DNA from: Deltaproteobacteria bacterium
GTDB taxonomy: Bacteria > Desulfobacterota > Binatia > HRBIN30 > CADEER01
Direction of reading: 5' to 3'
DNA: 64,000 nt
Assembly (NCBI GenBank): GCA_029262455.1
Contig: JAJCZJ010000088.1
Coordinates: 270,273-334,272, forward strand
Below the pieces are notes generated by a model, which had not been told where the DNA came from, did no database searches, and saw only the letters and a program-made list of their open reading frames with translations. The first letter of the stretch is position 1. Each line of letters opens with the position of its first letter. Positions 1 to 35,105 of the stretch are shown here, piece after piece. Both the position numbers and the translations under genes were made by a program.

Positions 1-1546
1 CGAAGGTTTTCGTATAGGCCAGCGGAGTGAAGAGTTTTCCCTCGGCCGCTTCCATCGTGAAGACGGGAAGGAAACTCACGACCGTCGTCGACACTGCAGT
101 CAGGACAGCGCCTCCCACCTCGGAAGCAGCACGGTGAATCGCATCGAGCCGGCTCTGCTCAGGCGGCCGGTTCTCCAGCTTCTGTAGAATGTTCTCACAA
201 AGGACAATCCCCATATCGACCATCGTTCCAATCGCGATGGCGATCCCCGAGAGAGCGACAATGTTCGCGTCCACTCCAAAGCGCTTCATCCCGATGAACG
301 TCATGAGGATCGCAAGCGGGAGCAGCCCGGCGATGAGAAGGGAAGAGCGCAAGTGAAGCACCATCATCGCGACAACGATGATGGTCACAAGGATCTCCTC
401 GACAAGCGCCGTGTTGAGCGTCCCGAGGGTTTCGTAGATCAATCCCGTGCGATCGTAGAAGGGTACAATCACCACTTTTGAAACTGTCCCATCAGCCAGC
501 ACCTTCTTCGGAAGTCCGGCCGAGATTTCGGCGATTTTCTTCTTTACGTTCTTGATGACGGCGAGCGGATTCGCCCCGTAGCGGGCAACCACAACACCAC
601 CGACCGCTTCGGCTCCCCCCTTACTCAGAGCGCCGCGACGGAGCGCCGGGCCTTCGGTTACAACCGCCACGTCCTTGACGTAGACCGGAACATTCTCGTT
701 GGCCTTGATGACCGCGTTCTCGATGTCAGCAAGGCTGCGGATGAACCCGAGCCCACGGATGAAGTACTCAACGCCGTTGATTTCGATGTTCCCGGCTCCG
801 ACGTCCAGATTGCTCATCGCCGTCGCTTCCGCGACGTCGCCGATGCTCACGCCGAACGCTCGCATTGCGTCTGGGTCGACATCGATCTGGTACTCGCGAA
901 CGAACCCTCCAACGCTCGCAACCTCGCTGACGCCCTCAGCCGCCATCAGCGCATAACGCACATACCAGTCCTGCGCCGTTCGAAGCTCATCCAGATTCCA
1001 ACCCCCGGCGGGTTGGCCCTCTTCGTCACGGCCTTCGAGCGTGTACCAGAAAACTTGCCCCAATGCCGTCGCGTCTGGCCCAAGCGCCGGCTGTACATCG
1101 GAGGGTAGCGTCCCCGCCGGCAGACTGGCGAGCTTCTCGAGCACCCGCGTCCGCGACCAATAGAAGTCAACTCCTCCCTTGAAGATGATGTAGACCGACG
1201 AGAATCCGAAGAATGAGTAGCTTCGAATCGTCTTCACTCCCGGAATGCCGAGGAGAGAGACCGTCAGTGGGTAGGTAATCTGATCCTCGACATCCTGCGG
1301 CGAACGCCCCATCCACTCGGTGAACACAATCTGCTGATTCTCGCCGATGTCCGGAATCGCATCGACCGGCACGGGGTCGCGCGGCAACGATTGAATATCC
1401 CAGTCGAAGGGTGCCACCAGCACTCCCCAACCGATGAAGAGAGCGGTGGTGAGCACGACCACGAGTTTGTTCTCGAGGCAGAACCGAATGATGCTGGAGA
1501 TCGCCCCAGTCGCGGGCGGGCCGGATTGTGGTTCTATCGACGCCAT
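1..1546 (-). CDS. CusA/CzcA-family heavy-metal efflux RND transporter, N-terminal ~515 aa (gene continues past the window start)
   Basis: Reverse translation from the ATG at 1546 gives MASIEPQSGPPATGAISSIIRFCLENKLVVVLTTALFIGWGVLVAPFDWDIQ..., typical of the N-terminus and first TM helix of HME-RND pumps. It lies 9 nt downstream of the adaptor gene on the same strand. Confidence 0.8.
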   Translation of the reverse strand, partial: MASIEPQSGPPATGAISSIIRFCLENKLVVVLTTALFIGWGVLVAPFDWDIQSLPRDPVPVDAIPDIGENQQIVFTEWMGRSPQDVEDQITYPLTVSLLGIPGVKTIRSYSFFGFSSVYIIFKGGVDFYWSRTRVLEKLASLPAGTLPSDVQPALGPDATALGQVFWYTLEGRDEEGQPAGGWNLDELRTAQDWYVRYALMAAEGVSEVASVGGFVREYQIDVDPDAMRAFGVSIGDVAEATAMSNLDVGAGNIEINGVEYFIRGLGFIRSLADIENAVIKANENVPVYVKDVAVVTEGPALRRGALSKGGAEAVGGVVVARYGANPLAVIKNVKKKIAEISAGLPKKVLADGTVSKVVIVPFYDRTGLIYETLGTLNTALVEEILVTIIVVAMMVLHLRSSLLIAGLLPLAILMTFIGMKRFGVDANIVALSGIAIAIGTMVDMGIVLCENILQKLENRPPEQSRLDAIHRAASEVGGAVLTAVSTTVVSFLPVFTMEAAEGKLFTPLAYTKTF

Positions 1547-1555
1547 CACCGCCCC

Positions 1556-3046
1556 CTAGTGTCCCGCGTGCTGATGGCCACCGGCCGCCGCTGGGGCACC
1601 ATCGGCGCTCATCATACTCGGGCGAGCCTGGATCTGCAGCGAGCTATCGATTTTGAAGCTGCCCTTCACCACGACCTGTTCCCCCACCTCGAGACCGCTT
1701 CGAATCACATAGTGCTCGCCTGCCCGGGGGCCAAGCACGACAACGCGTCCCTCGAAAGTCGGCCGATCTTCGCCGGGTACGCGCACGTAAACCACCGCGC
1801 GCTCCCCGGTAATGAGCAAAGACTCATAGGGCACGACAATCGGCGCATGCTGCTCGTCCGCCGGCGCATACCCGAGGTCCTCCGCCTTGACCAGCGCCAT
1901 GCCACAAATCGGACACGACCCAGCTTCGTCTCGAACCACTTCAGGATGCATCGGGCCAATCCATTTACCCTCGAGGGTTGGGTCCATGACCCGACCGCCC
2001 TGCGCGACACCGGCGCGCACGACAGCGCGCACAAACATCTCAGGCTTGAGTCGCCCATCCGGATTGTCGACGTTGACGCGAATCTTGACCGTGCGAGTTT
2101 TCGGATTGAGAATCGGGTCGATGAACGCGATCCTGCCGTGGAAGGGTTCACCCGGGTAGGCCTCCGTGGTGAACTCCACGTCTTGGCCAAAACGAATCCA
2201 AGACATGTCGGATTCGTAGGCATCGAGCTGCACCCAAACCTTTGAGAGATCCGCAATCTTGTAGATCGGGGTGCCGGTGTCGACGTACAAGCCTTCGACC
2301 GCGCTCTTGTGCACCACCGTGCCACTTGCCGGCGCATAGATGGTCAAGTGGTCCGTAGCGCTACCGCGCTGCTCGATGCCGCGAACTTGCTGTTGGGTCA
2401 ACCCGAGAAGGCGAAGCTTCTCGCGCGCAGAATCAATCGTTGCGCGGGTGGACTCGCGCAACACCGATAGACCACTCCCCTTGAGCTCCGCGGTCGCCCG
2501 CTTGGCCTGCAAGAGCTCCTCCTGAACCGTGACTAGCTCTGGGCTGTAGAGCGACACCAGATGGTCGCCCTTCTTCACCTGGACGCCGGTGTAGTCGACG
2601 AAGAGACGGTCGATTCGGCCAGGCACCCAGGCAGCGATGTTGCGTAGTCGCGTCTCGTCGTAGTCGACTTTGCCGACCATCCGAACCGCGCGAGTGACCA
2701 ACATGCGCTTCACTGGTGCCGTCTCGATCTCAGCGATGGCAACCGCTGCCTGGCTCATGGCCAGGCGCCGCGGATGCTTCTCTCCATCGGCGGCCCTGTC
2801 CCCGGTTTTGACAGGTATGAGGTCCATCCCGCAGATGGGACATTTTCCGGGACCGCTCAACTTGATCTGCGGATGCATCGAGCAGCTCCAAAACTCATCG
2901 GCCGCCGCAGCCGCGGCGCCGTGCCCGGCGTGTTCGTCCATCTCCGTCACCTGATGAGTTCCGTGTGACATCGACGACAGGCGGCCGAGAACAAAGCTCA
3001 CCGAAACTAACACAACAAGGCCAATGGCTAGTCCACTTCGATTCAT
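1556..3046 (-). CDS. Efflux RND periplasmic adaptor (CusB/CzcB-like) with two heavy-metal-binding CPICGM modules and a C-terminal His-rich tail
   Basis: 496-aa ORF with HlyD/MFP-like beta-barrel and lipoyl regions. Two copies of W/GxMHPxxxxxxxxxCPICGMxL (SCSMHPQ...CPICGMDL and GPMHPEV...CPICGMAL). Ends in GGHQHAGH. Confidence 0.85.
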   Translation of the reverse strand: MNRSGLAIGLVVLVSVSFVLGRLSSMSHGTHQVTEMDEHAGHGAAAAAADEFWSCSMHPQIKLSGPGKCPICGMDLIPVKTGDRAADGEKHPRRLAMSQAAVAIAEIETAPVKRMLVTRAVRMVGKVDYDETRLRNIAAWVPGRIDRLFVDYTGVQVKKGDHLVSLYSPELVTVQEELLQAKRATAELKGSGLSVLRESTRATIDSAREKLRLLGLTQQQVRGIEQRGSATDHLTIYAPASGTVVHKSAVEGLYVDTGTPIYKIADLSKVWVQLDAYESDMSWIRFGQDVEFTTEAYPGEPFHGRIAFIDPILNPKTRTVKIRVNVDNPDGRLKPEMFVRAVVRAGVAQGGRVMDPTLEGKWIGPMHPEVVRDEAGSCPICGMALVKAEDLGYAPADEQHAPIVVPYESLLITGERAVVYVRVPGEDRPTFEGRVVVLGPRAGEHYVIRSGLEVGEQVVVKGSFKIDSSLQIQARPSMMSADGAPAAAGGHQHAGH

Positions 3047-7146: not shown

Positions 7147-7494
7147 ATGTCGATCGATTTATGCCCCGCCCTCGTCTCAATGACCGCAGAGCTCGAAAAG
7201 TGCGATGTAGTTCGCGTCAAAGAGATTCTCTTCGCGGCCCTGCGATGGTCGGACGACCATTCTCTCACTCCGGAGTCTCGCAAGGGCGCCGGCCACGTAA
7301 TCGAGTTGGCGCGTCTCGAACTCTCCGTGCGACGGCGCCCTCCGACAAGCGAAAAGCAGGCCCAGCTCATCGCCCGACTCCGAGAAACGCTGCCGCCATC
7401 CATGCGGACGATCGCCGCGGGCATCCAGGCACGTGACCAGCCGTCACAGGAGAAAACCAATCGCCAGGTCGGCAGCACCGAGGAAGACGCCTAG
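7147..7494 (+). CDS. Hypothetical 115-aa protein upstream of the MoxR-VWA pair
   Basis: ATG-initiated ORF with a coding-like composition and no recognisable motif. Confidence 0.3.
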   Translation: MSIDLCPALVSMTAELEKCDVVRVKEILFAALRWSDDHSLTPESRKGAGHVIELARLELSVRRRPPTSEKQAQLIARLRETLPPSMRTIAAGIQARDQPSQEKTNRQVGSTEEDA

Positions 7495-7754
7495 CGATCC
7501 GACTTCTCCCGCATCGCGATCCAGGATTCAGCGAGGATTCATTGAATCGAGGGCAGCCTTTGCTGGGCTGTCCGTTTCTACATGAGGAACTCAGAGTTTT
7601 CCCCCGGCTTTCACCCTGGGCGTAGGACTCTCCACCCCGTCAGGACGGTTGCCCGGGAGGCTCTGCCGATGGCCCCAGGCGTAGCTCGCACGTGCCACCT
7701 AACAGGCGACCCTCGTCCTTGCGCCGCCGTGGCGCTGCCGATAGGGGTTATCGG

Positions 7755-8659: not shown

Positions 8660-9862
8660 ATGTTTCTCGACTTTTTCTACGGACTGCGCGACGAAGGCGT
8701 GCCGATCGGCATCCAGGAGTGGCGTTCATTTCTCGAGGCCCTCGAGAAGGGCCTGCACGGCGCCAGCCTGTTGCGATTCTACCACCTCGGTCGGACGTGT
8801 TTGATCAAGAGCGAAACATATTTCGACGCATACGACCGAGTCTTCGCGCGTATCTTCAAGGGTATCGAAGGACAGTTCGGCGACGACGTCACCAACGAGG
8901 TGATGGACTGGCTCAACAATCCCGAGAACTTCAAAGGCCTCACCGAGGAACAACGAGCACAGCTAGAAGCTCTGTCGCGCGATGAGCTCATGCAGCGTTT
9001 TCTCGAGACCCTGCAAGAACAGGACGAGCGCCACGACGGCGGCGACAAATGGGTCGGCACCGGCGGTCGTTCACCGTTTGGCAACAACGGCGAACACCCA
9101 AGCGGCATCCGGGTCGGTGGCAAGAGCAAGAACCGGTCAGCAATGAAAGTCGCCGAAGAGAGGCGCTTCGAGGACTACCGCACGGATCAGCAACTCGATG
9201 TGCGCCAACTGAAGGTGTCGCTGCGCCGCTTACGCCAGCTCACCCGCACGGGGCAGGCGACAGAGCTCGACCTCGACGAGACCATCGACGAAACTTGTCG
9301 CAATGCGGGCGAGATCGAACTCGTCTTCCGGGCACCGCGTCGCAACAATGTTCGACTACTGCTGTTGATGGATGTCGGCGGGACCATGGACCCGTACTTC
9401 GAACCGGTCAGCCGTCTCCTCACGGCACTGCACGAGTACCACGGTCTGCGCGAGCTCAAGTCGTACTACTTCCACAACTGTATCTACGACAACGTCTACT
9501 CGAGCGGCCGACTGACCAAGGCCAACGCCGTCCCGACCGCAGACATCCTGCGCCGCCTCGATAGCCGTTGGAAAGTCGCCATCGTTGGCGATGCCGGCAT
9601 GCACCCCGCCGAGCTGCTCGAGCCTTACGGCTGCATCGACCCGCGCCAGGAGTCGGCAACCCCCGGCATCGTCTGGTTACAGCGGATCGCTGATCACTTT
9701 GAACGCATTGCCTGGATCAATCCGGACAATCGCGCCTACTGGAACGGCTCACACACATGTCGCATCGTGCAGCGCCAGTTCCCAATGTTCCACCTCAGCG
9801 TCGACGGTATCACCGAAGCAATGCAGGCCCTCGTCGGCGCCCGCCGCGCAAACGCTGCGTAG
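8660..9862 (+). CDS. VWA domain protein (CoxE-like), partner of the MoxR ATPase
   Basis: N-terminus MFLDFFYGLRDEGVPIGIQEW resembles the VWA_CoxE family. A C-terminal VWA/MIDAS-like region (LLLMDVGGTMDP) is present. It lies 24 nt downstream of the AAA gene. Confidence 0.75.
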   Translation: MFLDFFYGLRDEGVPIGIQEWRSFLEALEKGLHGASLLRFYHLGRTCLIKSETYFDAYDRVFARIFKGIEGQFGDDVTNEVMDWLNNPENFKGLTEEQRAQLEALSRDELMQRFLETLQEQDERHDGGDKWVGTGGRSPFGNNGEHPSGIRVGGKSKNRSAMKVAEERRFEDYRTDQQLDVRQLKVSLRRLRQLTRTGQATELDLDETIDETCRNAGEIELVFRAPRRNNVRLLLLMDVGGTMDPYFEPVSRLLTALHEYHGLRELKSYYFHNCIYDNVYSSGRLTKANAVPTADILRRLDSRWKVAIVGDAGMHPAELLEPYGCIDPRQESATPGIVWLQRIADHFERIAWINPDNRAYWNGSHTCRIVQRQFPMFHLSVDGITEAMQALVGARRANAA

Positions 9863-9933: not shown

Positions 9934-10806
9934 ATGTCGCGACTCTTCCAACGGACGGCCTATTCCGCCGGCAGGATTCGGAGAGCGGAAGTGATCCGCG
10001 GGCCGACGGGCTCATTGCCGCGTTCGCGATCTGCACCGGCATTGGCCGCAGTGCTGAGCACGCTCGGGCTCACTGCGGTGGTTTACGGGCAGGTCGTAGA
10101 GCCGGTCGTGATCGCACCGACATGGACAGAATACGTCGATGCCCTGGGAGTGTTGGAGGCTAGAAGCGCCGACGCCGACGCGGTCGCCACGGCGCTCTTT
10201 CGGGTGCAGAACGAAATCGGCCGGCGAAGGCCCAGTTCTAGGAACAGGCCGCCGTGCGACGACGAGGGGCTGGCGTCCCTGGCGCCTCGCGCCGAGGTCC
10301 TCGGTGTCGCGTTGCGAGACCGATTGCAAGCTGCACGGGCGCAGGCGCGTCGCGTCGATCGGCTCGCTGCGGCGCCCACGGTCGCACCGTTGGTGGACGG
10401 CCGAACCGGCCATCGACGGGCGGTCGTCACGGATCGCGTGACCTCTTCGACCGACATGTACCTGGAAGCCGTGGCCTGGCACGAAGGCCAGGTCGCCGAC
10501 TTCATTCGTCGTTGCAATCCGCCGCTTGCCCTCGCTGAGGGATTGGCCGTACCAGGGCCGTCGGGGCTCGATCCCAACCCAGACGGCGAACGGCCGCGGG
10601 TCGCGGTCATCGCACTACAAGGAGGTCGGATTTGCCCCGCCGGGGCGGTCACCTCGGGTGTCGCAATCACGGACGGACAGGCCTGTTACGGGGACGAGGA
10701 CTGCTCGTGCGAGCCCGCAGTCGTACTTCCAGCCGCCGTGCTCGGACCCTCCGAAGGCCAAGCACCCGAGCCCTCACCGATCGCCAGCGCCGGGTCGGCG
10801 AAGTAA
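9934..10806 (+). CDS. Hypothetical Ala-rich protein, possibly secreted
   Basis: 290-aa ORF with a possible signal segment (PALAAVLSTLGLTAVVYGQV). Its 3' end overlaps the convergent gene by ~120 nt, which lowers confidence. Confidence 0.35.
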   Translation: MSRLFQRTAYSAGRIRRAEVIRGPTGSLPRSRSAPALAAVLSTLGLTAVVYGQVVEPVVIAPTWTEYVDALGVLEARSADADAVATALFRVQNEIGRRRPSSRNRPPCDDEGLASLAPRAEVLGVALRDRLQAARAQARRVDRLAAAPTVAPLVDGRTGHRRAVVTDRVTSSTDMYLEAVAWHEGQVADFIRRCNPPLALAEGLAVPGPSGLDPNPDGERPRVAVIALQGGRICPAGAVTSGVAITDGQACYGDEDCSCEPAVVLPAAVLGPSEGQAPEPSPIASAGSAK

Positions 10807-12332
10807 GCCTTGCGCAGGCTCTCGTCTGCTTCGGCCTGGCGGCCCGAGAGCTGGAGCGCCGTCGCGCGCAGGACCAGTGCCTCAGGATCCCAACGATCTC
10901 GCTCGAGAACTTCACTGGTGAAATCGAACGCTTGTTCGGGGCTCTCGGGTAGCACTGCGGCCGCCGCGACGAGGGAGTCCTCTCGACTTCGCGACGCAGG
11001 CAGACCCTCCCGCACGTGGAGATCGCCGGCTTTCAGCCGTGCCTTCCACCGGAGGCGCCGCGCAAGGTCGAAACGATGCAGCGACTCCGCCTCACGGGCG
11101 GCGTCCTCGTGCCGCCCGAGATCGTTTGCGAGAGCCATGCGCAAGGTTTTCGCCTCGGCGATCGCTCCGCGTGTGATGAGCTCTTCGAGCAGGTCATAGG
11201 CTTCGCGAAGGCGTCCCTCGCGCACTTGCAGCGCCACCCGGCGACGAATCGGCTCTGGAGCGTCGCGGTCTACGTCCGCCCACTCGGCCAGCAGGCGCTC
11301 GTAGTCGGCGCCCGGCCCCTCCCGTTCCGCGATGTCGACGCGCAACGCGACCACGGCGGGGTCACGCTCGTGGTGTCGCGACAGCCCGTCGAGAAGCGAC
11401 CGTGCAACTCGGGGCTCGCCGACGTCTAGATACGCGGCGGCGCGCGCCACGGGGAAACGGCTGTCCTCCGACCACTGCGTTGCCAACGACTCCCACGCCT
11501 GCAGCGCGCCCGCTGCGTCCCCCGACGCGGACAGTGCGGCAGCGACTCCGGCGCGAAGGGCGAGCCAGTCTCCCCCCGTCACGACACCCGCTTCGAAGGC
11601 CAGGCGCGCGCCTCCCGGGTCGTTGGCGGCGAGCCGGCGGCGGCCGGCGAGCCATTGCGCTGCGACCATCGTCGGGTCGACTCGCAGCGCAGCAGCCAGC
11701 GGCCCGAGGCGTCCGTAGGTGACGCCGGCCGGAAGCGGCAGGTCGTAGTCAGCGACGGCCGCCCTGCCCAGGAGCAAGCGCGCGTACCGGTCGGCGGACA
11801 CCGGTCGCCGCCACTTCTCGATCATCGCAGGCCCGGCCGGGCGGTGCAGAGTCGCCGCGCACCAGACGAGCGCCTCGGCGACACCTTGGCCAAGCTCCTC
11901 CGCGTCGCCCGACCAAGTCGTCTCAGCGTACGACGCGTCAGGCGGCGAGAGCCGCAGCCGGATCTCCAGTGCGCCGCCGGTCGAGAACGAGGAAACGATC
12001 ACCGCCAGGCCCCAGTGCTCGACCCCGTGGCGCAGCCAGCGGTCCAGACCGGGGGCAGATCGCCCGTTGTTCCACGAAACGACGACGCCGTCGATCTCGA
12101 TCAGCCCCATTTCCATCAAGACGGCCACCAGACCGGCTCTCTCGACGCGCCAACGATGGTCACCGCGGACCTCCGGCCTTTCGACCAGGATCCTGGCGAT
12201 TGGCGGAGGACGACCGGGCTCGAGACCGCCGGCACCGTCCGCGATCGTGCTGGTCTCGCTGCGACAGCCTGTGCCGACGGCGCTTGCCGCCACGGTCATC
12301 AGGATGTAGGCGCGTAGGGTGCGCAAGCTCAT
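10686..12332 (-). CDS. Putative lipoprotein with TPR-like helical repeats
   Basis: N-terminus MSLRTLRAYILMTVAASAVGTGC is a signal peptide with a lipobox-like Cys. The Ala/Leu/Arg-rich body is helical-repeat-like. Confidence 0.5.
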   Translation of the reverse strand: MSLRTLRAYILMTVAASAVGTGCRSETSTIADGAGGLEPGRPPPIARILVERPEVRGDHRWRVERAGLVAVLMEMGLIEIDGVVVSWNNGRSAPGLDRWLRHGVEHWGLAVIVSSFSTGGALEIRLRLSPPDASYAETTWSGDAEELGQGVAEALVWCAATLHRPAGPAMIEKWRRPVSADRYARLLLGRAAVADYDLPLPAGVTYGRLGPLAAALRVDPTMVAAQWLAGRRRLAANDPGGARLAFEAGVVTGGDWLALRAGVAAALSASGDAAGALQAWESLATQWSEDSRFPVARAAAYLDVGEPRVARSLLDGLSRHHERDPAVVALRVDIAEREGPGADYERLLAEWADVDRDAPEPIRRRVALQVREGRLREAYDLLEELITRGAIAEAKTLRMALANDLGRHEDAAREAESLHRFDLARRLRWKARLKAGDLHVREGLPASRSREDSLVAAAAVLPESPEQAFDFTSEVLERDRWDPEALVLRATALQLSGRQAEADESLRKAYFADPALAIGEGSGAWPSEGPSTAAGSTTAGSHEQSSSP

Positions 12333-14643
12333 TGGGTACCTCGCCGTCGTCTTGTCACTAGCCTTCCTTGTCGGCGCTGGCTACGGGCTGCATTGGTTCA
12401 ACCTGCACGTGTGGTCGGAGTTGCCGAGCGACCTGAGCTCGCTGCGCGACTTCCGCCCGCTGTCCAGCTGCCTCGTCTACGCGGCCGACGGTAGCCGCAT
12501 CGACCAATTCTACATCGAGCGCCGTATCTGGGTCCCCATCGACGAGATCCCACCGATCGTCTGGCAGGCCTTCGTCGCAATCGAAGACCGACGCTTCCTC
12601 GATCACAAGGGAATCGACCCCGTTGGCATCATGCGCGCGGCCGTGCGCAATATGCAAAGCGGCAACGTGATGGAAGGCGCCTCGACGATCACCCAGCAGA
12701 TCGTCAAGAACCTCTTGGTCGGCAACGATCGAACGTACCGCCGCAAACTCAAGGAAGCCGTTCTGGCGCTTCGCCTCGAGCGCGAGCTCGACAAGATGAC
12801 GCTGCTCGAGATCTATCTGAATCTGGTCTACCTGGGTGACGGAAACTACGGCGTCGGGGCGGCGGCAGAGGATTACTTCGGCCGGCCGGCACGCGAGCTC
12901 GACCCCGGACAAGCCGCAACTCTCGCCGGTCTGGTGGCGGCGCCGTCGCGACGCTCTCCGCGCAAGCACCCGCGGCGCGCCGCGGCGCATCGGCTCCAGG
13001 TGCTTGCAAGCATGGTCACCGGCGGCTACCTGTCCGCGGCGGCGGCGGCGGGCTACGAGGGTGATCCGGTGTACGCTCCCTTGCAGGCCGCGGAGCCGCG
13101 CACGCGAGCCGCGGCCTACCAGACCGTCGTGCGGCGGGAGATCCGCACGCTGCTCGGCCGGCAGGCGCCGTTTCGTCTCGGACTGCGTGTACACACCGCC
13201 CTCGACCTGGATATTCAAGAAACCGCCGAAGACGCTCTGCGGAAGGCGCTGCAGGCAATCGACGAACGGCAGGGCCGCCGCGGGCGGGTGGCCGTGTTGT
13301 CGCAGTCGGAGGTCGAGGCCTTCCTGCGGCGAGCGCCTGGACTGCCGGCGCCGGCCGGGCATGACGCCCCGCCCGAACCGCAGGCAGGGAGCTGCTTTCC
13401 CGCTGTGCTCGGCCGAGCCGGGCTGGACGAGCTGCGTGCCGCGTCTTGGTCGTATCGGATGCGGGACGATCAGCGCGAGGTTCTCGTGTACGCTGGAGAG
13501 CGCGGCGAAGCTCCCTTGCGGGAGATGGTCCGCGAAGGCGACATTCTGCAGGTATGTCTCGACCAGAACGGCGAGGCAGGGTTGGACACGACGCCGCGCG
13601 CAGAGGGAGCAGTGGTCGTGATCGAGAACCAGACCGGCTACGTCCGCGCGATCGTCGGCGGATATCGTGACCGACTCGAAGGGTTTGTCCGAGCCACACA
13701 GGCACGCCGGCAACCCGGCAGCAGCTTCAAGCCCTACGTCTACGCCACCGCACTGGTGGCAGGGCGCCGGCAGACTTCGCGTGTGCTCGACGGCCCGTTG
13801 TCGCTGCCGGCGGGAAACGGCAAGGTCTGGAGCCCAGGCAACTTCGGCGATCGGTATCTCGGGTGGGTGCGAATGCGCGAGGCGTTGGCAGCCAGCCTCA
13901 ACTCGGTGGCAGTCCGCCTGGCTGTGGAGGTCGGCGTCCCTGCGGTGGTGCAGACGGCTCGGGCGATGGGTGTTCGTTCGCCGCTCGAGAGCAATGCGGC
14001 GCTGGCACTCGGCGCCAGCGAGGTGACCCCGATGGATCAGGCGCTCGGATACGCCACGATTGCTCGTCAGGGAGTCCCCACTGATCCAATTTTCATCCTC
14101 TCGCTGCAGGATGATCGGGGCGGCGTCGTTGCGCAGGCCGGCCAACGGTTACCGAGCGATCTCGGCGGTGCGCGGCTACCCGGCGGCCCTCTGCCACGAG
14201 CCCTGCCTGCAGGAGTGGCCTACGAGCTCGCCGACATGCTGCGCAACGTCGTCGAGTCGGGAACGGGCAGGCGGGCCTTCGATCCGGATGGTGATCGCGC
14301 TGGCAAGACGGGTACGACCAACGGTTTCGCAGACGCATGGTTCGTCGGATTCACCTCGCGCTATACGATCGCAGTCTGGATCGGCACCGACGACCGGGAG
14401 CCGTTGGGCCACGGGGAGACCGGATCGCGCGCCGCTCTCCCGGCCTGGCTGCGAATCGTCGAATCGCTGCCCCACCCTCAAGGCGCACGCTTTGCCGTCC
14501 CCGACGAGGCCGTTATCGTTCGCGTCGGCGAACGCTGGCTCGGCTTTCCTCGCGGCCGCGCCCCGCGCGATAGCCTACCACGGGCGACAGCTTCGGACGC
14601 CCCGCTTCCTCCCTTCCTCCGTCGGTCGGCGCTCAGGCACTGA
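12319..14643 (+). CDS. mrcA: Penicillin-binding protein 1A (bifunctional transglycosylase/transpeptidase)
   Basis: An N-terminal TM anchor, the GT51 motifs AFVAIEDRRFLDHKGIDP and EGASTITQQIVKNL, and a transpeptidase region with GSSFKP. GTG start. Confidence 0.85.
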   Translation: MRKLIGYLAVVLSLAFLVGAGYGLHWFNLHVWSELPSDLSSLRDFRPLSSCLVYAADGSRIDQFYIERRIWVPIDEIPPIVWQAFVAIEDRRFLDHKGIDPVGIMRAAVRNMQSGNVMEGASTITQQIVKNLLVGNDRTYRRKLKEAVLALRLERELDKMTLLEIYLNLVYLGDGNYGVGAAAEDYFGRPARELDPGQAATLAGLVAAPSRRSPRKHPRRAAAHRLQVLASMVTGGYLSAAAAAGYEGDPVYAPLQAAEPRTRAAAYQTVVRREIRTLLGRQAPFRLGLRVHTALDLDIQETAEDALRKALQAIDERQGRRGRVAVLSQSEVEAFLRRAPGLPAPAGHDAPPEPQAGSCFPAVLGRAGLDELRAASWSYRMRDDQREVLVYAGERGEAPLREMVREGDILQVCLDQNGEAGLDTTPRAEGAVVVIENQTGYVRAIVGGYRDRLEGFVRATQARRQPGSSFKPYVYATALVAGRRQTSRVLDGPLSLPAGNGKVWSPGNFGDRYLGWVRMREALAASLNSVAVRLAVEVGVPAVVQTARAMGVRSPLESNAALALGASEVTPMDQALGYATIARQGVPTDPIFILSLQDDRGGVVAQAGQRLPSDLGGARLPGGPLPRALPAGVAYELADMLRNVVESGTGRRAFDPDGDRAGKTGTTNGFADAWFVGFTSRYTIAVWIGTDDREPLGHGETGSRAALPAWLRIVESLPHPQGARFAVPDEAVIVRVGERWLGFPRGRAPRDSLPRATASDAPLPPFLRRSALRH

Positions 14644-28764: not shown

Positions 28765-31700
28765 ATGTCCAGTTCCGTACGCCTTGCAGGTGTCGCATCG
28801 GCGATGTTGCTGATTTTCAGCGCGTCGTACGCAGCAGCGATTCCGCTCACTTCTGACGAAGCAAAATGTCAGAAAACCGTTGCCACCCAAGGCCGCGTCT
28901 TCTTCAAGAAGCGCATCAAAGCCCTACAAAAGTGCAACGACGACATCATCAAGGGCAAGCTTGCCTCCGGCACGGATTGTACACTCGAATCCAAGGCAGC
29001 CAGCAAGATCACCAAGGCCGAGACTAAGTTCAGCGCCAAGGTCGGTGGCAAGTGCACCGATGCTTTGGTCGCAGCACTCGATTTTGGCGGCCAATGCGCC
29101 GGCGCGGCGACAACCGCCACGTTGACCTCGTGCCTTCGGCAAGACCATAGCAGTGCAGCCGACTCGCTGATCGCAACCGTCTACCCGACAACCGCGGTCA
29201 AGCAATGCGCCGGCGGAGCAAACGACGGTCTCGTGTGCACCGGGAACCCCGGATGCCCAGGCGGTACATGCGCCCTCCCGGGTCACGCATGTGACGGTGG
29301 AGACAACGACGGCACCGCTTGCGATATCGACGCAGACTGTACCGGCGGCGGCTCCTGTCTTCAGGGCAAGGACCACGCAAATTGCATCAAGACTGTCGGC
29401 AAGACAGTTGCCAAGCAAGCCAACAAGCGCATGGCCCTCGTACAGAAGTGCAAGAAGTCTGTCGGCAAAGGCAAGCTGCCGATCGGCACCGATTGCGTCG
29501 CCGAGTCGCAAGCGAAGCTCGACAAGCTGATGACCAAATCGATTCAGAAGATTCAGGACAAGTGTCCTACTTCGATCGCTTCGGGTCAGTTGTTCGGCGG
29601 CTCGTGTAAAGGTTCCGACACCACCGACAACGTCGCTTTCTGTGCCCTGTGCGAAACGAATAGCGGAGCCGACGACTTGATCGTCGTCCAGCACGGCTCC
29701 GGATCGAACGGCGGCGCAGCGGGTGCGATTCAGATCACCGACACCGCGGACTGTGTCGACGGCCCACAGAGTCGTTGCCGGATCGGCGACTACCTCCTAT
29801 CGAACGGCAACATTCGCGTCGTCGTACAGGACATCCAACGCCAGTACCTCGCGGGGATCGGCCAGTTTGGCGGTCAAATCATCGACGCCGACTTGGTTCG
29901 CACCGTAGGTGCCGACCGCGACAGTTTCGAAGAGTGGGCCGTTTCGCTCAACATCGAGTCCACCGCTCACTACACAAACCTCACGATTATCAACGATGGC
30001 ACCAACGGCGGTCCGGCGATCCTTCGCGCGACCGGCGTCGACGACCTTCTCGACCTGCTCAACCCGAGCGCAACCATTGCCAGCTTCGGACTTCTCTTGC
30101 CCCCTACGGCCGACGACTTTGATATCCCGGTAACGGTCCAAACGGATTACATCCTCGATCCGGGCTCGAATGCGGTCGAAGTCGAGACCACCGTTCTAAA
30201 CACCAGCGGCGCCTCTATCGACATCTTCTTCGGGGAGTTCATCAACGGCAGTGGCCAAGTCGAGCTCTTCCAATCCGGCTATGGCTTCGGCGAGCCACTG
30301 ATCGCGTCACCGTGCGGCGGCCGATCCAAATGCAACCAGCTCGCCAACATGATCGGTTACAGCGGAGAGCTGGAGTCTGCCGGAGTCTCCTACGCGTATG
30401 CTTCGGATACCCCCAACTCGTCATCGTTTTCGACCTCCGGAGTGTCCGTCGAACTCCTCGGTGTCGACGCGCTCGGTGCGCTGATTGGCGCCGCAACAGC
30501 CAACTTCACGCTCGAAGCAAACGGTACTACCGGCGATAGCCTCACCTTCTCCCGCCTATTCATCGTCGGGGACGGGACCATTTCCTCCCTGATTGACACC
30601 AGGATCGCGACTCAATGCCTGCCGTTCGGAACAGTCGACGGCACCGTGGATCTCGGAGGCAGCGTCATAGCCGACGCCGACGTGGTGGTTCTTGGTACCC
30701 CCGCCAACGGCCCCGGTGGCGGCCTGCACAACAATCTAACCCGCAACGTCGTGACACATACCCGCACCGACGCTGCGGGAGCCTTCTCACTGACACTGCC
30801 ACCGGGCAGCTACACCCTGGCAGCAAACTTTCAAGGCGCCCTGTACGAAGGTGCTGGAACATCGCCGACCGAGCACAGCATCACGGTGGTCGCGGCGACC
30901 ACCGTAACCCAGAACGTAAGCCTCCCGACGACGGGCGCGTTGCGCGTCATCGTGGACGACGAAAATACCGATCCGATCGCCGCCAGAATCGCCGTGGTCG
31001 GATTCGATCCGTCCCCGGATCCCAAGAACAATCAGAATCTTCTGGGACTGATCTTCAACACAACCGGCGTGTTTGGCGACCAAAACGAAGACGGCTTCCC
31101 GTTTGGCGTCGCACACAATCGCTACGCCGATGCGTCGGGCGACACCGGAGAGTTTCCAATGGAGCCGGGATCGTACCGCGTTTATGTCTCCCACGGCACC
31201 GAGTACTCCATCGACTTCGAAGACGTAACGATTACGGCCGGGGCCACGACGACGGTCAACGCTACGGTCGAACGGGTCATCGACTCCACCGGGTTCGTTT
31301 CCGGTGATTTCCACGTCCACTCGATCGATAGCCCAGACGCCGCTATCAGCCGCACCGATCGAGTCATCGCCATGCTCGGAGAAGGTGTCGATTTCTTTGC
31401 CACCACCGACCACGGCTACCGTGCCGACTTCTCTTCCGCCATCACCAGCCTCGGGGTTGGTGGACTGGTCTCCACCGCCATCGGACAGGAGATCACAACC
31501 TTTGACTACGGGCACTTCAACGCGTGGCCGCTCGACCTGAACACGTCGCTGGCCAACGGCGGTTTCGTGGACCACGGCGGCGCCGCTCCGGATGGATTGG
31601 ACTACCCGTCCGCCGGCTTCTACAGCGAAACGCCGGCAACCATCGTAGCGCTCGCCCACGCCGACTACACAGGCACCAACACCGTCCAGATCAACCACAT

Positions 31701-32781
31701 CCACAGTCACTTCGGTGTGGATGGTGGATCCGGGCTCGGCATCGACACCGGACTGACACCGCCAGCATCTGTCGTACCGGCTGCGGCCCGTCGGCTGAAT
31801 CCGGCCGTCACCAACTACTTCACCGACACCTTCGACGCTCTCGAAGTGTGGATCGGCGAAAGCTTAGGCCAAATCGACGATAACTTCCTCGGGCAGAACG
31901 CTGGTGACTGGATGAACATGATCAACCAGGGAATCATTTCGACGGGTGTCGCCAACTCGGACACGCACCGTCGCTTCATCACACAGTCGGGTTTTCCACG
32001 CAGCATGGTCGCCTCGCTCGAGGACGATCCCGGGCTGCTTTCGCAAGACGATGTCTCGTCGAGCGTCAACGCCGGGCGTGTGATTGGGACCAACGGGCCG
32101 CTGCCGCGGATTACGGTCCACTCTGCCGCAACCGGCGAAAGTGGTGGCCTCGATCTCGGACGCTGTACCGGAGTCGTGGCGTGCACCAACACGACGACAT
32201 GCCCGCCGTGCACGGACACCAGTCAATGCGCAATCGGCGAGACATGTACGACGCTTCCGACAACGATTACCTCCACTTCCGGGACCGATGTCGACATCAC
32301 CGTCGACGTGCAAAGTCCCGAATGGGCGCCGTTCGACAGGATCGAGTTCTACATCAACACCACAACTACCAAGACCACCACGATGGACGTCGAAACCGGG
32401 TCTGGAGAAGTTGATGTCAATCGCTATTCACTGACACCGGATCTCGTACACACCGCCGGAGTCGACTTCGCCGTCTCGACGGTCGCCGTGCCCGGTACGG
32501 GCTCCTCGCGACTCGTCGCAACGACCAGCACGACTCTGACTGGCCTGACCACCGACTCATGGGTAAGCGTCATGGTCGTCGGCACTGACGGTGTTTCCAA
32601 TCCGCTGTTTCCGGTCGTGCCAAACAGCCTCACGCAAGCCGGCAACACCACTCTGGCGAACCTGATCGACGGCAACCTTGGTGAGTCGGGTATGCCTGCG
32701 TTGGCGTTCACGAACCCGATCTTCATCGATACGGATGGCTCGGCCGGCTGGGACGCGCCGGGTGTACAGATTGCACCGTAG
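28765..32781 (+). CDS. Large secreted multidomain protein: duplicated Cys/Lys-rich N-terminal modules, a Cys-rich linker, a carboxypeptidase-regulatory-like domain and a PHP-type metallophosphoesterase domain
   Basis: Signal peptide MSSSVRLAGVASAMLLIFSASYAAA. Two ~75-aa modules with an identical Cys spacing (CQKTV...KC...GTDC...KC...GGQC and CIKTV...KC...GTDC...KC...GGSC). TDAAGAFSLTLPPGSYTL (CarboxypepD_reg-like). DFHVHSIDSPDAAISRTDRVIAMLGEGVDFFATTDHGY (PHP domain HxH...D...TDH). Confidence 0.8.
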   Translation: MSSSVRLAGVASAMLLIFSASYAAAIPLTSDEAKCQKTVATQGRVFFKKRIKALQKCNDDIIKGKLASGTDCTLESKAASKITKAETKFSAKVGGKCTDALVAALDFGGQCAGAATTATLTSCLRQDHSSAADSLIATVYPTTAVKQCAGGANDGLVCTGNPGCPGGTCALPGHACDGGDNDGTACDIDADCTGGGSCLQGKDHANCIKTVGKTVAKQANKRMALVQKCKKSVGKGKLPIGTDCVAESQAKLDKLMTKSIQKIQDKCPTSIASGQLFGGSCKGSDTTDNVAFCALCETNSGADDLIVVQHGSGSNGGAAGAIQITDTADCVDGPQSRCRIGDYLLSNGNIRVVVQDIQRQYLAGIGQFGGQIIDADLVRTVGADRDSFEEWAVSLNIESTAHYTNLTIINDGTNGGPAILRATGVDDLLDLLNPSATIASFGLLLPPTADDFDIPVTVQTDYILDPGSNAVEVETTVLNTSGASIDIFFGEFINGSGQVELFQSGYGFGEPLIASPCGGRSKCNQLANMIGYSGELESAGVSYAYASDTPNSSSFSTSGVSVELLGVDALGALIGAATANFTLEANGTTGDSLTFSRLFIVGDGTISSLIDTRIATQCLPFGTVDGTVDLGGSVIADADVVVLGTPANGPGGGLHNNLTRNVVTHTRTDAAGAFSLTLPPGSYTLAANFQGALYEGAGTSPTEHSITVVAATTVTQNVSLPTTGALRVIVDDENTDPIAARIAVVGFDPSPDPKNNQNLLGLIFNTTGVFGDQNEDGFPFGVAHNRYADASGDTGEFPMEPGSYRVYVSHGTEYSIDFEDVTITAGATTTVNATVERVIDSTGFVSGDFHVHSIDSPDAAISRTDRVIAMLGEGVDFFATTDHGYRADFSSAITSLGVGGLVSTAIGQEITTFDYGHFNAWPLDLNTSLANGGFVDHGGAAPDGLDYPSAGFYSETPATIVALAHADYTGTNTVQINHIHSHFGVDGGSGLGIDTGLTPPASVVPAAARRLNPAVTNYFTDTFDALEVWIGESLGQIDDNFLGQNAGDWMNMINQGIISTGVANSDTHRRFITQSGFPRSMVASLEDDPGLLSQDDVSSSVNAGRVIGTNGPLPRITVHSAATGESGGLDLGRCTGVVACTNTTTCPPCTDTSQCAIGETCTTLPTTITSTSGTDVDITVDVQSPEWAPFDRIEFYINTTTTKTTTMDVETGSGEVDVNRYSLTPDLVHTAGVDFAVSTVAVPGTGSSRLVATTSTTLTGLTTDSWVSVMVVGTDGVSNPLFPVVPNSLTQAGNTTLANLIDGNLGESGMPALAFTNPIFIDTDGSAGWDAPGVQIAP

Positions 32782-34093
32782 CAAAACGTATCTCGCGACT
32801 ACCCCGCGGAACCTGGACGTAACCAGGTTCCGCGGGGCCACCTCCGCCCTGCGGGCTGCCACGAATCTGCTGCTCGCTCTGGTACTGTTGGCGCCAGCTT
32901 CAGCTTACGGCGCCTTTGCACCAAAGACCCGTGAGATGCTGCGCAAGGCTACGTTCGTCGGCGGCGGCGAGATCCTTGCGACGTCCGAGTACGACGACGG
33001 TCGCATTGGCGTAGTCCATATTCGCATCGACGAAATGTTCAAACCGGGCAAGACCAAAGGTCCCCACAGTGTGCGCGTCGTTTCGATCACCGATGAACCG
33101 GGCGCGGTTCAACCCGAAGTCGGCGCCAAAGGGCTGCTCTTTGTCCAGCCTCTGCGACGCACCTCCTACATCGATCGACACGTGCCGGACAGCACCAGCA
33201 CCTACTCTTTCGTCGATGGACGCGATGGCTGGCGCCAAGCACGAGCCAACCAGATGGAAAAGTTGGCCGCCCCTATCCGACAGCTGGTCGCGAACAGCCG
33301 CGGAAAACAGAAAGATCCATCGGCTCAGACCGCCCAGCGCACGATTACGTTTCAGCTCATCTCTTCGCTCGACCCAATCCTGGTGCCTGACGGACTCGTC
33401 GTGCTTGCGGAACTCCCGGATCTCGCTAATTCCCTTAGTGAAGCAGAGGTCGACAGCCTCAAGGCCGCCCTCCACTCCGACACGCTGCCGACGAAAGTCC
33501 GCAAGACCGTCATCAGCGCGATCGCCGACAATCGACTCACCGTGCTTGCCGACAGCTTGCGCAAGATCGACGACACAGAGCTTCAACGTGACGCCTGGGG
33601 CGCGTTGCGCCGACTCGGGCATCCGATAAACGTCGACACTTTGCACGAAGATCTAAAAAGCGAAAAGCCGGGAGTTCGCACCGCGGCTGCTTTGGAACTT
33701 CTCGACCGGGATCCCGAAAAGGAGATCGCGACCGTGTCGAAACAGCTCCTGAAGGATCCCGATCCCGAGGTCAGGCTCGAGGTAATCGAAGCACTAGGCG
33801 CAACCGGCTCGGCACAGGCGGCTACGGTGCTCGAACCGGTCTTCTCCGACTCCGACCTGAAGCAGCGCCAAGCAACGGCGCGGGCCCTACTTGCGATCGG
33901 CGGACCCACCGCCGCAGACTCGTTTCACCGCCTTGCCTTCGAGGGTTCAATTCAAGCCCAACGGTTTGCAGTATTCGGACTGTTCTCGCTCGGCGTCGGG
34001 CGCGAGGATGGCCGCCTGCAGGACATCGCAAGACGCCACACCGACAAGAAAATCAAGGAACTGATCGAACATGGCATCGAGCACGGCCACTGA
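32735..34093 (+). CDS. Secreted HEAT-repeat (PBS-lyase-like) protein
   Basis: Signal peptide LLLALVLLAPASAYG and C-terminal HEAT-like repeats (VRTAAALELL..DPEVRLEVIEALGATG..LKQRQATARALLAIG). The first ATG (32735) overlaps the upstream gene by 47 nt; in-frame GTG 32762 or TTG 32771 are alternatives. Confidence 0.6.
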   Translation: MARPAGTRRVYRLHRSKTYLATTPRNLDVTRFRGATSALRAATNLLLALVLLAPASAYGAFAPKTREMLRKATFVGGGEILATSEYDDGRIGVVHIRIDEMFKPGKTKGPHSVRVVSITDEPGAVQPEVGAKGLLFVQPLRRTSYIDRHVPDSTSTYSFVDGRDGWRQARANQMEKLAAPIRQLVANSRGKQKDPSAQTAQRTITFQLISSLDPILVPDGLVVLAELPDLANSLSEAEVDSLKAALHSDTLPTKVRKTVISAIADNRLTVLADSLRKIDDTELQRDAWGALRRLGHPINVDTLHEDLKSEKPGVRTAAALELLDRDPEKEIATVSKQLLKDPDPEVRLEVIEALGATGSAQAATVLEPVFSDSDLKQRQATARALLAIGGPTAADSFHRLAFEGSIQAQRFAVFGLFSLGVGREDGRLQDIARRHTDKKIKELIEHGIEHGH

Positions 34094-34142
34094 CACTCCG
34101 CGGAAATTTCGAACTCCCAGACCATTCTCCCCAACCGCATTA

Positions 34143-34541
34143 ATGATTGCGTTGACTGCAGCAGCGATCTTTGCGGCAGCGACAACCTCGGCTCATACCA
34201 AGCCACGCGCCGCGAAAGAGCTGGTGCGAATTCACGGAACCATCGCCGCCGGCGGAACTTGCGAAAAGGCGACCCTGGTGAAGCTGGCAGTGTTGGGGCG
34301 AGCCCTGCAGATCTGCGCCAGTGATCTGAGGCGCATCGTGGTTGCAACAGAGGAAGGGGCCGACGAACCAGCTCCAACCGAGCTGGATTTGCAGGGAGAG
34401 AGGTCCTCCCTGGCTCGCTTGCGCAAAGCACAGCCACCACAGACGGTATCGATCCTCGGTGAATGGCGGCCCGGCCGACGGGACCTGTTCCTGATCTCGC
34501 TCGATCTTTGTGATTGCGGAGATCCGCCTCCAGACAATTGA
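34143..34541 (+). CDS. Hypothetical small secreted protein
   Basis: MIALTAAAIFAAATTSAHT is a signal peptide. ~130 aa with a C-terminal CDCG. Immediately precedes the LRAT-family gene. Confidence 0.35.
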   Translation: MIALTAAAIFAAATTSAHTKPRAAKELVRIHGTIAAGGTCEKATLVKLAVLGRALQICASDLRRIVVATEEGADEPAPTELDLQGERSSLARLRKAQPPQTVSILGEWRPGRRDLFLISLDLCDCGDPPPDN

Positions 34542-34553
34542 GGCTTTTCTCGT

Positions 34554-35105
34554 TTGGGTCACCGCTCGGTTCACGGTATGATCGCTGCCATGGCAGCAGG
34601 GGACCACATCCGCGTTCTACGGCGACGGCTATACTGGCACCACGGAATCGACCTCGGCGATGGCTCAGTGATCCACGCCAGCGGCGAGCCCGGTCGTAGA
34701 AATATCGATGCCGAAGTACGACACTCTTCGATTGAGGAGTTCGCGCGCGGTGGCGAGATCGAGATCGTCGATGATGGAGGCCTGCTCTCCGGTGACGAAG
34801 TGGTCGCCCGCGCAAGGCAGGCGCTCGGGACCAAGGACTACAGTCTGCTTTCCAACAACTGCGAGCACTTCGCACGCTGGTGCCGTACTGGTCGCGGCAA
34901 CAGCGAGCAGATCGACGCCTTTGCGATCGCCGGAACAGTTCTCGGGTTGGCAGCACGACTCGCCATCGCTGGGATCGCCCGAAAGGGCGGAACTTCGTTG
35001 GCGATCCGCGCACTCCCGTTGGCGGGGCCGCTGGCGACCGGACTGGCTGTCGCCGCCGCAGCCGTCGCAGTGGGCACTCGCGTCCTACGCGCTGAAGAGA
35101 ACTGA
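34554..35105 (+). CDS. LRAT/PLAAT-family protein (NlpC/P60 superfamily papain-like acyltransferase/phospholipase) with a C-terminal hydrophobic anchor
   Basis: GDHIRVLRRRLYWHHGIDLGDGSVIHASGEP (the catalytic His region) and LLSNNCEHFARWCRTG (the catalytic NCEHF Cys motif). An Ala/Gly-rich hydrophobic tail follows. The start may be the ATG at 34578. Confidence 0.7.
   Translation: MGHRSVHGMIAAMAAGDHIRVLRRRLYWHHGIDLGDGSVIHASGEPGRRNIDAEVRHSSIEEFARGGEIEIVDDGGLLSGDEVVARARQALGTKDYSLLSNNCEHFARWCRTGRGNSEQIDAFAIAGTVLGLAARLAIAGIARKGGTSLAIRALPLAGPLATGLAVAAAAVAVGTRVLRAEEN

Follow-up and report, generated by a model that had tools for sequence, protein, structure and literature searches.

The 64,000-nucleotide stretch of DNA analyzed here (the window; contig JAJCZJ010000088.1 of assembly GCA_029262455.1, positions 270,273 to 334,272 of the forward strand) comes from a Deltaproteobacteria bacterium placed by GTDB in the Binatia. 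Our analysis centers on one of its genes, located at 28765–32781 on the plus strand and preceded, 6 nucleotides 5' of its ATG, by the Shine-Dalgarno-like sequence GAGGGGG. This gene, singled out in a first-pass annotation made from the sequence alone and confirmed by the list of open reading frames (ORFs), encodes a 1338-amino-acid (aa) protein that we identify as an exported multidomain metallohydrolase of the PHP superfamily (hereafter the hydrolase). Its architecture, with the basis of each assignment in brackets, is as follows:

28765–32781, plus strand: the whole hydrolase gene, encoding a 1338-aa exported multidomain PHP-family metallohydrolase (ORF list and translation)
28765–28839, plus strand: predicted Sec-type signal peptide, residues 1–25, with predicted cleavage between AAA and IP (hydropathy and AxA rule; homolog layout)
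28855–29181, plus strand: Cys/Lys-rich module 1, residues 31–139, a basic six-Cys three-helix bundle (self-BLAST, AlphaFold2 (AF2) model, composition)
29197–29364, plus strand: Cys-rich linker, residues 145–200, with 8 Cys in two short β-hairpin knots, variable among lineages (sequence; short strands in the AF2 model)
29371–29694, plus strand: Cys/Lys-rich module 2, residues 203–310, a duplicate of module 1 (self-BLAST, AF2 helices, composition)
29722–30618, plus strand: β-supersandwich, residues 320–618, galactose-mutarotase/polysaccharide-lyase-like (fold matches; best-conserved non-catalytic region)
30628–30924, plus strand: first β-sandwich, CarboxypepD_reg (transthyretin/Ig-like), residues 622–720 (Pfam PF13620)
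30934–31269, plus strand: second Ig-like β-sandwich, residues 724–835 (AF2 strands)
31291–32079, plus strand: PHP-type catalytic barrel, residues 843–1105, with ligands H850, H852, D858, H883, E909, H917, H978, D1066, and H1068
32080–32778, plus strand: C-terminal β-sandwich, residues 1106–1338, with a six-Cys insert at residues 1134–1161 (nucleotides 32164–32247) (AF2 strands)

The identification is anchored on the catalytic barrel, which has the distorted (βα)7-barrel fold of the PHP superfamily. To assess conservation, we aligned 233 PHP-domain segments spanning approximately 30–100% identity. Motif I (H-x-H-x3-S-x-D), present as H850-V-H852-SID-S856-P-D858, is invariant (conserved at 95% or more) across these sequences, and the remaining ligands occur in the contexts TDH (H883), G.EIT (E909), GHFN (H917), NH (H978), and D1066-T-H1068. 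Positions conserved in at least 95% of the segments comprise D848, H850, H852, S856, D858, R866, H883, E909, T911, G916, H917, P922, G933, D936, P957, N977, H978, R1010, E1027, G1056, D1066, and H1068, and every ligand of the PHP pattern (HxH...SxD, H, E, H, H, DxH) is among them. Only profiles reached PHP structures in the PDB, a phmmer search of PDB sequences with the whole protein having returned no match. The profile built from the PHP domain recovered RNase AM (9etk, E 6.8e-5), 3e38 (E 2e-3), the 5'-3' exoribonuclease 7ug9, and the L. lactis histidinol-phosphate phosphatase (HPP; 4gc3), with the first motifs in register at each residue; H883, E909, and H917 align with these PHP proteins, and 3e38 also has the sequence GHFNA. 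The first-pass annotation had proposed that an HxH/TDH block supplies PHP metal ligands, and this is borne out by the alignment of H850, H852, D858, and H883 with H9, H11, D17, and H42 of 4gc3, which we take to be metal ligands of that enzyme. Using the L. lactis enzyme as our assumed guide to the three metal sites, the alpha site would presumably comprise H850, H852, E909, and D1066, the beta site E909, H917, and H978, and the gamma site D858, H883, and H1068, with H978, D1066, and H1068 provisionally placed by motif order only. All nine residues from which PHP enzymes construct their trinuclear metal site are present in the hydrolase.

Conservation of this kind bears directly on whether the protein is an enzyme at all. 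Its many Ig-like/β-sandwich domains and structure matches to pilins could be taken to indicate a non-enzymatic surface, adhesin, or structural protein that retains a degenerate PHP fold as a scaffold, a view to which we give almost no credence: the nine metal ligands and further active-site residues are invariant across the 233 sequences, and the pilin matches are limited to the CarboxypepD_reg/CnaB-like sandwiches. We therefore rejected an adhesin identity, which the invariant metal ligands contradict. Among curated families, NF038032 (CehA/McbA family metallohydrolase), a 'domain'-type model rather than an equivalog, matches residues 843–1218 over its positions 1–284 of 315 with 89.8 bits against a cut-off of 80. 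This match extends past the barrel into the C-terminal β-sandwich, and 3e38 is itself a PHP plus β-domain protein. At E <= 1, the NCBIfam scan of the hydrolase listed only NF038032 and a spurious Sca4 match. Fold and ligands accordingly place the hydrolase in the PHP superfamily, and its score places it in the NF038032 domain family.

The N-terminus of the hydrolase, MSSSVRLAGVASAMLLIFSASYAAA followed by IP(L), contains the n-region, h-region, and AxA site of a Sec signal peptide, which we assigned by rule as R6 (n-region), residues 8–20 (h-region), and cleavage between A23-A24-A25 and I26. A hydrophobic N-terminus with AxA is kept in 112 of the 120 best homologs (for example ...AHA/IPLS and ...AQA/VPLS, the slash marking the predicted cut), in which the AxA is followed by (A/V/I)(L/P)(T/S/L). 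The earlier description of a secreted protein agrees with this conserved layout and with the rule-based prediction, which does not place the protein in the cytoplasm. We also tried and set aside a lipoprotein reading, as the hydrolase has no lipobox of the form L-[AS]-[GA]-C and its first Cys, C35, lies past the cleavage site. The extracytoplasmic part of the protein contains 32 Cys.

In the first-pass annotation, an exported PHP enzyme was regarded as unusual. We consider this overstated, because exported PHP enzymes have experimental precedent; moreover, of the 99 long distant representatives of the core family described below, 96 begin with a hydrophobic stretch and 52 contain a lipobox-like motif. 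For the PHP-domain phosphodiesterase Sb-PDE of Sphingobium sp. TCM1, N-terminal sequencing verified that the signal peptide is cleaved (PMC5460133). Like the hydrolase, it is an exported enzyme of the PHP superfamily, with a Sec signal peptide established by experiment, and as a functional precedent for an exported PHP phosphoesterase it is the best available. It differs in being a 441-aa homodimer with a direct Pfam PHP match and in having neither accessory β-domains nor helical modules. Carbaryl hydrolase (McbA) is periplasmic in Pseudomonas C5pp, a PHP-like domain is predicted in McbA of strain XWY-1, the residues His467, His477, and His504 of McbA are essential, and a signal peptide has been reported for CehA of strain AC100 (PMC8292978). 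Export of a PHP domain is not surprising in itself, and an exported PHP metallohydrolase, already labeled generically by NCBI, is ordinary in kind.

What surrounds the barrel is more distinctive. The AF2 model of residues 310–1338, computed from an 80-sequence alignment, has a predicted local distance difference test score (pLDDT) of 91.3 and a predicted template-modeling score (pTM) of 0.91, which would be consistent with a rigid multidomain body. The first-pass annotation had recorded neither the β-supersandwich (300 aa) nor the second Ig-like domain, nor the C-terminal β-sandwich and the Cys-rich insert within it, and it had not noted the partner genes that follow downstream. Its CarboxypepD_reg-like domain, on the other hand, was recovered by the domain scan: PF13620 matches residues 625–720 with E 5.4e-9 and 36.7 bits, above the gathering threshold of 32.3, and the same domain is matched in 36 of 41 distant relatives. 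The sole Pfam match within the second Ig-like domain is fn3_3 at residues 787–831, whose 22.4 bits fall below the cut-off of 24.4. For the β-supersandwich there is no Pfam model, yet its conservation equals that of the PHP domain. It is marked by the motifs GDYLL.N, GGQIIDAD, RD.FEEW, and NDG..GGPA.LR..G.DDLLD, and among relatives of 28–47% identity D342 is invariant and D374 and D386 nearly so.

Fold matches of the β-supersandwich include the PL4/PL26 rhamnogalacturonan lyases, the GH174 fucanase, galactose mutarotases, OpgG/OpgD, and the periplasmic domain of YidC, at 7–13% identity. Such top folds, together with the strong conservation of the domain and its Asp residues and with a supersandwich-then-fn3-like order that mirrors PL4, could point to a second catalytic or glycan-binding centre, making the protein mainly a glycan-processing enzyme (stripping phospho-substituents from a phosphoglycan, for example, or cutting it) with PHP as one of two activities. 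We judge this quite unlikely. Identity to those structures is low, as are the global template-modeling scores, no PL4 or GH Pfam model matches beyond the sub-threshold fn3_3, the same fold serves as a non-catalytic scaffold in YidC P1 and many GH accessory domains, and no conserved carbohydrate-utilization genes lie nearby. PL4 membership itself was examined and rejected: beyond the fn3_3 hit (22.4 < 24.4 bits), there is a fold likeness to 1nkg at 7–12% identity, and since this likeness to PL4 concerns the scaffold only, the hydrolase is not a PL4 member. Its relation to the PL4/PL26 lyases and mutarotase-like domains consists in a shared supersandwich fold, with no lyase Pfam model matching the hydrolase.

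N-terminal to this body lie the two Cys/Lys-rich modules. Self-BLAST aligns residues 31–136 with residues 203–306 at 40% identity (E 4e-23), and the duplication recognized in the first-pass annotation is therefore genuine. The modules had been described there as about 75 aa long with five Cys in exact spacing; each is instead about 108 aa long and has six Cys, at positions 35, 57, 72, 97, 111, and 123 in module 1 and 207, 229, 244, 267, 281, and 293 in module 2, and the spacings (22/15/25/14/12 vs 22/15/23/14/12) differ in one interval. Since the six Cys of each module are invariant, those of module 1 across 80 aligned sequences, disulfide stabilization would fit. Helices in the AF2 model of module 1 span residues 30–62, 76–96, and 117–139, and the model of residues 25–332 (again from an 80-sequence alignment) has a pLDDT of 93.5 and a pTM of 0.88. 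With Lys contents of 12.5% (module 1) and 14.3% (module 2) and an isoelectric point (pI) of 9.1 in both, the modules are Lys-rich and predicted to be helical, as had been proposed. They are not the adhesin-like elements also suggested there, being modeled as basic, disulfide-rich three-helix bundles.

The linker between the modules carries its 8 Cys within residues 148–198 as two C-x9-C-x5-C-x4/5-C units. Its Cys content varies across 120 homologs: 40 have 8, 29 have 4, and 50 have no Cys there. The six-Cys insert of the C-terminal β-sandwich is present in only 25 of the 120; both elements are lineage-specific decorations. The Myxococcus-type cysteine-rich repeat TIGR02232, a candidate model for the linker, gave no match in the NCBIfam scan (E <= 1). 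Neither the Cys module nor the core nor the PHP domain recurs elsewhere in the window. A homolog search with module 1 alone yielded 23 candidates, and the one match returned was P0121, a 188-aa protein on a 24.9-kb ENA contig that is 66% identical to module 1 before passing into a tail rich in Arg and Pro and unrelated to it; P0121 most likely represents a frameshifted, truncated, or mis-assembled copy of a hydrolase gene rather than a stand-alone module protein. A different setting for the modules was observed in locus L049, from the Myxococcota metagenome-assembled genome (MAG) contig JANQFA010000016.1, where a 5'-truncated ORF (4..1752, plus strand) encodes a trypsin-like serine protease (TAAHC ... 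GDSGGP). After the protease part, this protein carries two copies of the same six-Cys helical module (hidden Markov model domain E ~1e-15 each) and a C-terminal domain, so the six-Cys module pair is a portable unit found on unrelated exported enzymes. Also present in this locus is a gene of the core family whose Cys modules are divergent, together with a HEAT partner of the kind described below.

Charge separates the two halves of the hydrolase sharply. Core residues 330–1338 (window 29752–32778) contain 3 Lys among 1009 residues (0.3%) and have a pI of 4.1. This asymmetry is a family trait: across 116 homologs the median pI is 8.5 for the modules vs 4.27 for the core, and the Lys depletion of the catalytic body is conserved, with a median of 0.9% Lys. 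In relatives, the stretch before the core holds a lipoprotein signal, a dockerin-like segment, Ig-like domains, or divergent Cys-rich helical modules. We infer that the two basic modules occupy a slot that a lipoprotein anchor or other add-on fills in those relatives, and, from their charge and position, that their probable role is to hold the acidic enzyme at, or direct it to, an anionic surface, a polymer, or the HEAT partner.

The family of the hydrolase is large. A look-up of contigs encoding the identical protein gave no record, but over 250 proteins match along the full length, of which the best 120 are 1240–1400 aa long and 48–71% identical, with named sources in Candidatus Binatia, 'Deltaproteobacteria', and Thermodesulfobacteriota MAGs; NCBI labels them 'hypothetical' or 'CehA/McbA family metallohydrolase'. 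In an exhaustive HMMER search, core residues 310–1338 matched 3018 cluster representatives at E <= 0.001, of which 671 reach E <= 1e-30. The majority of the representatives are 990–1130 aa long, with the homologous core starting at residue 40–130. A genome scan placed core-family loci in Binatia, Myxococcota, Dehalococcoidia, Limnocylindria, Gemmatimonadota, Halieaceae, Spongiibacteraceae, Spirochaetales, and Opitutales. The core family extends over at least six phyla and, judged from sequence, is almost always exported, often as a lipoprotein. Several Binatia MAGs contain two or three core copies (L024/L038/L048; L039/L042; L034/L044). Copies with the canonical Cys-module pair always have the HEAT partner, and some paralogs with other N-termini are without it (L044, L048).

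This partner is encoded directly downstream of the hydrolase gene and is followed by a third, smaller gene:

32735–34093, plus strand: partner gene, encoding an N-domain of about 200 aa and C-terminal HEAT repeats; the product is predicted to be exported and the gene co-transcribed (Pfam HEAT_2; sequence)
34071–34541, plus strand: third gene, encoding 156 aa with an N-terminal hydrophobic segment and a conserved C-terminal LAEWRPG..DLF....D.C (sequence)

The only possible starts of the partner (ATG 32735, GTG 32762, and TTG 32771) overlap the end of the hydrolase gene, and alignment with the partners from loci L001–L003 reveals a hydrophobic, signal-like N-terminus. The third gene in turn overlaps the end of the partner by 23 nucleotides and has no Pfam or NCBIfam match. 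To evaluate this linkage, we considered the 30 loci that contain the Cys modules and at least 1.5 kb of downstream sequence: the partner is directly downstream in all 30, and the small third protein in 25. More broadly, a jackhmmer profile detected a full-length partner immediately 3' in 56 of 71 loci with data, which include Binatia and also Myxococcota, Spirochaetales, and Opitutales loci that have no Cys modules; Dehalococcoidia and gammaproteobacterial loci, and some paralogous ones, do not have the partner. The third gene was seen only in Cys-module loci, mostly of Binatia. Clustering of neighboring ORFs found nothing conserved across phyla but the HEAT protein, with the small protein conserved in Binatia, and independent loci retain the downstream pair as their upstream genes vary. 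In the window, the hydrolase is preceded by glnE, an acyl-CoA thioesterase gene, the acetate kinase gene, and gpsA, the last of which is divergently transcribed. A promoter and terminator scan returned 0 promoter-like sites, and terminator-like sites at the level of shuffled sequence.

A tight pairing of an exported hydrolase with an exported partner in overlapping frames resembles effector-immunity pairs, and a secreted toxin with the HEAT-repeat protein as its periplasmic immunity protein would account for it. We find this very improbable, because the context is one of housekeeping genes and evolution is slow: the pair is conserved and largely syntenic across many Binatia and other phyla, its surroundings are glnE, ackA, gpsA, and rnpA/yidC, with no secretion-system, Rhs, or mobile-element neighbors in the loci inspected, and the 48–71% full-length conservation is unlike that of fast-evolving effectors.

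Several further genes were recorded around the hydrolase and its relatives. Just past the three-gene cluster, the ORF at 34554–35105 (plus strand) has no NCBIfam match, and its positional counterpart in L001 (13750–14328) matches Pfam LRAT; the gene at this position is probably outside the conserved module, because it is absent from the other loci inspected. L001, the closest long contig, also has a gene for a 162-aa CHRD-domain protein directly upstream of its hydrolase (7156–7644), a position represented in the window by just a 193-bp intergenic region. In two other Binatia loci, genes for AAA (AAA_5) and VWA_CoxE proteins lie within a few kb of the hydrolase (L002 3249–5282; L003 17151–19129), and the VWA_CoxE gene of the window (8660–9862) is about 19 kb upstream, which may reflect coincidence or loose linkage. 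Farther upstream in the window, positions 10001–14000 form a patch with a G+C content of 0.68–0.70 vs about 0.60 elsewhere, holding a class A penicillin-binding protein gene (12319–14643; Transgly and Transpeptidase) and a 548-aa ORF on the minus strand (10686–12332) with no Pfam match. Near the window end, 61987–63990 (plus strand) encodes a 667-aa bacterial ROCO-type protein (LRR, Roc GTPase, COR-A, COR-B).

Bringing these lines of evidence together, we favor, with moderate confidence, the view that the hydrolase is an extracytoplasmic, probably disulfide-stabilized enzyme whose trinuclear PHP centre cleaves an ester, likely a phosphoester, in a polymeric or surface-bound substrate, in concert with the HEAT partner. 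In the mechanism we propose, a metal-bridged, metal-activated hydroxide would attack the ester bond, most probably a phosphoester, of a substrate held in a cleft that the barrel would build with the conserved β-supersandwich and Ig-like domains, a scaffold typical of polymer-acting enzymes. The basic modules would bring the catalytic body, itself very acidic, either to the partner or to an anionic polymer or surface (cell envelope, exopolymer, or nucleic acid), and the enzyme would cooperate with the exported HEAT-repeat protein, co-translated from the adjoining downstream gene. Our best guess for the substrate is a phosphoester in an anionic extracytoplasmic polymer; extracellular nucleic acid and polyphosphate, proposed in the first-pass annotation, are neither favored nor disfavored by our results.

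A number of observations weigh against this interpretation. The Pfam PHP model PF02811 gives no match to the hydrolase at E <= 1 and matches only one of 41 distant relatives (E 1.4e-4). The ~1000-aa core family has no characterized member; ten distant representatives carry no informative name, and a literature search on the family name found nothing relevant. The closest solved structures are two structural-genomics entries whose descriptions go no further than predicted phosphoesterase, and the anchoring role suggested for the basic modules draws on their charge and position. Moreover, CehA and McbA, the sole characterized enzymes named by NF038032, cleave a carbamate ester and not a phosphoester (PMC8292978). 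We attribute the missing PF02811 match to the limited reach of the Pfam model, and it does not contradict the fold and ligand evidence.

The CehA/McbA connection raises a further alternative, namely that the hydrolase resembles CehA/McbA in function, as an amidase or as an esterase for carboxyl or carbamate esters, and acts on a natural ester such as an acylated or carbamoylated glycan or lipid. NF038032 is the best curated family match, and McbA and CehA are classed as esterase-type carbaryl hydrolases, with the essential His residues of McbA in its predicted PHP-like domain (PMC8292978). We nonetheless regard this alternative as unlikely. NF038032 is a 'domain'-type model and no equivalog; the best sequence-level PDB relatives are phosphoesterases (RNase AM, the 5'-3' exoribonuclease, and HPP); and the invariant R866 and R1010 may fit an anionic phosphoryl substrate. 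The hydrolase is linked to CehA/McbA by its above-cut-off NF038032 match; they differ from it as plasmid-borne hydrolases of xenobiotic carbamates (carbaryl, oxamyl). Any relation appears distant, because a tblastn search of the PHP half against 72,556 plasmid records gave no match at E 1e-3, in a collection whose content of cehA/mcbA plasmids was unchecked.

Relative to other known systems, the phosphoester-cleaving enzyme we favor stands apart mainly in its architecture. TM0559 (2anu) and the two-domain PHP-like protein of Bacteroides vulgatus (3e38) are structural-genomics proteins of 224–343 aa, annotated no further than as predicted phosphoesterases, and do not have the 840 N-terminal residues of the hydrolase. 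The TrpH/YciV-type PHP nucleases and phosphatases, represented by RNase AM (9etk) and the 5'-3' exoribonuclease (7ug9), and HPP (4gc3) are, unlike it, single-domain cytoplasmic proteins of about 280–290 aa that act on nucleotides, RNA, or histidinol phosphate. The ~1000-aa core of supersandwich, two Ig-like domains, PHP barrel, and sandwich, its pairing with a HEAT protein, and the pair of basic six-Cys helical modules appear to be undescribed so far. More tentatively, we put forward the possibility that the core protein and its exported HEAT partner form an undescribed two-component extracytoplasmic system acting on a substrate class new to PHP enzymes (for example, phosphodiester-linked or esterified envelope or matrix glycans), with the Binatia module pair as a new targeting domain.

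Most is known about PHP enzymes that work within the cell, such as those of DNA polymerases, histidinol phosphatase, and RNase AM. The family described here points to a large PHP branch built for the periplasm or cell exterior, fused to β-domains like those of polymer-acting enzymes and usually paired with a HEAT-repeat protein. For annotation, it provides a domain map, a list of catalytic residues, and a partner gene for co-expression. The Binatia are uncultured bacteria abundant in soils and sediments, and a conserved exported hydrolase in this lineage may matter for phosphorus or carbon scavenging or for maintenance of the cell envelope.

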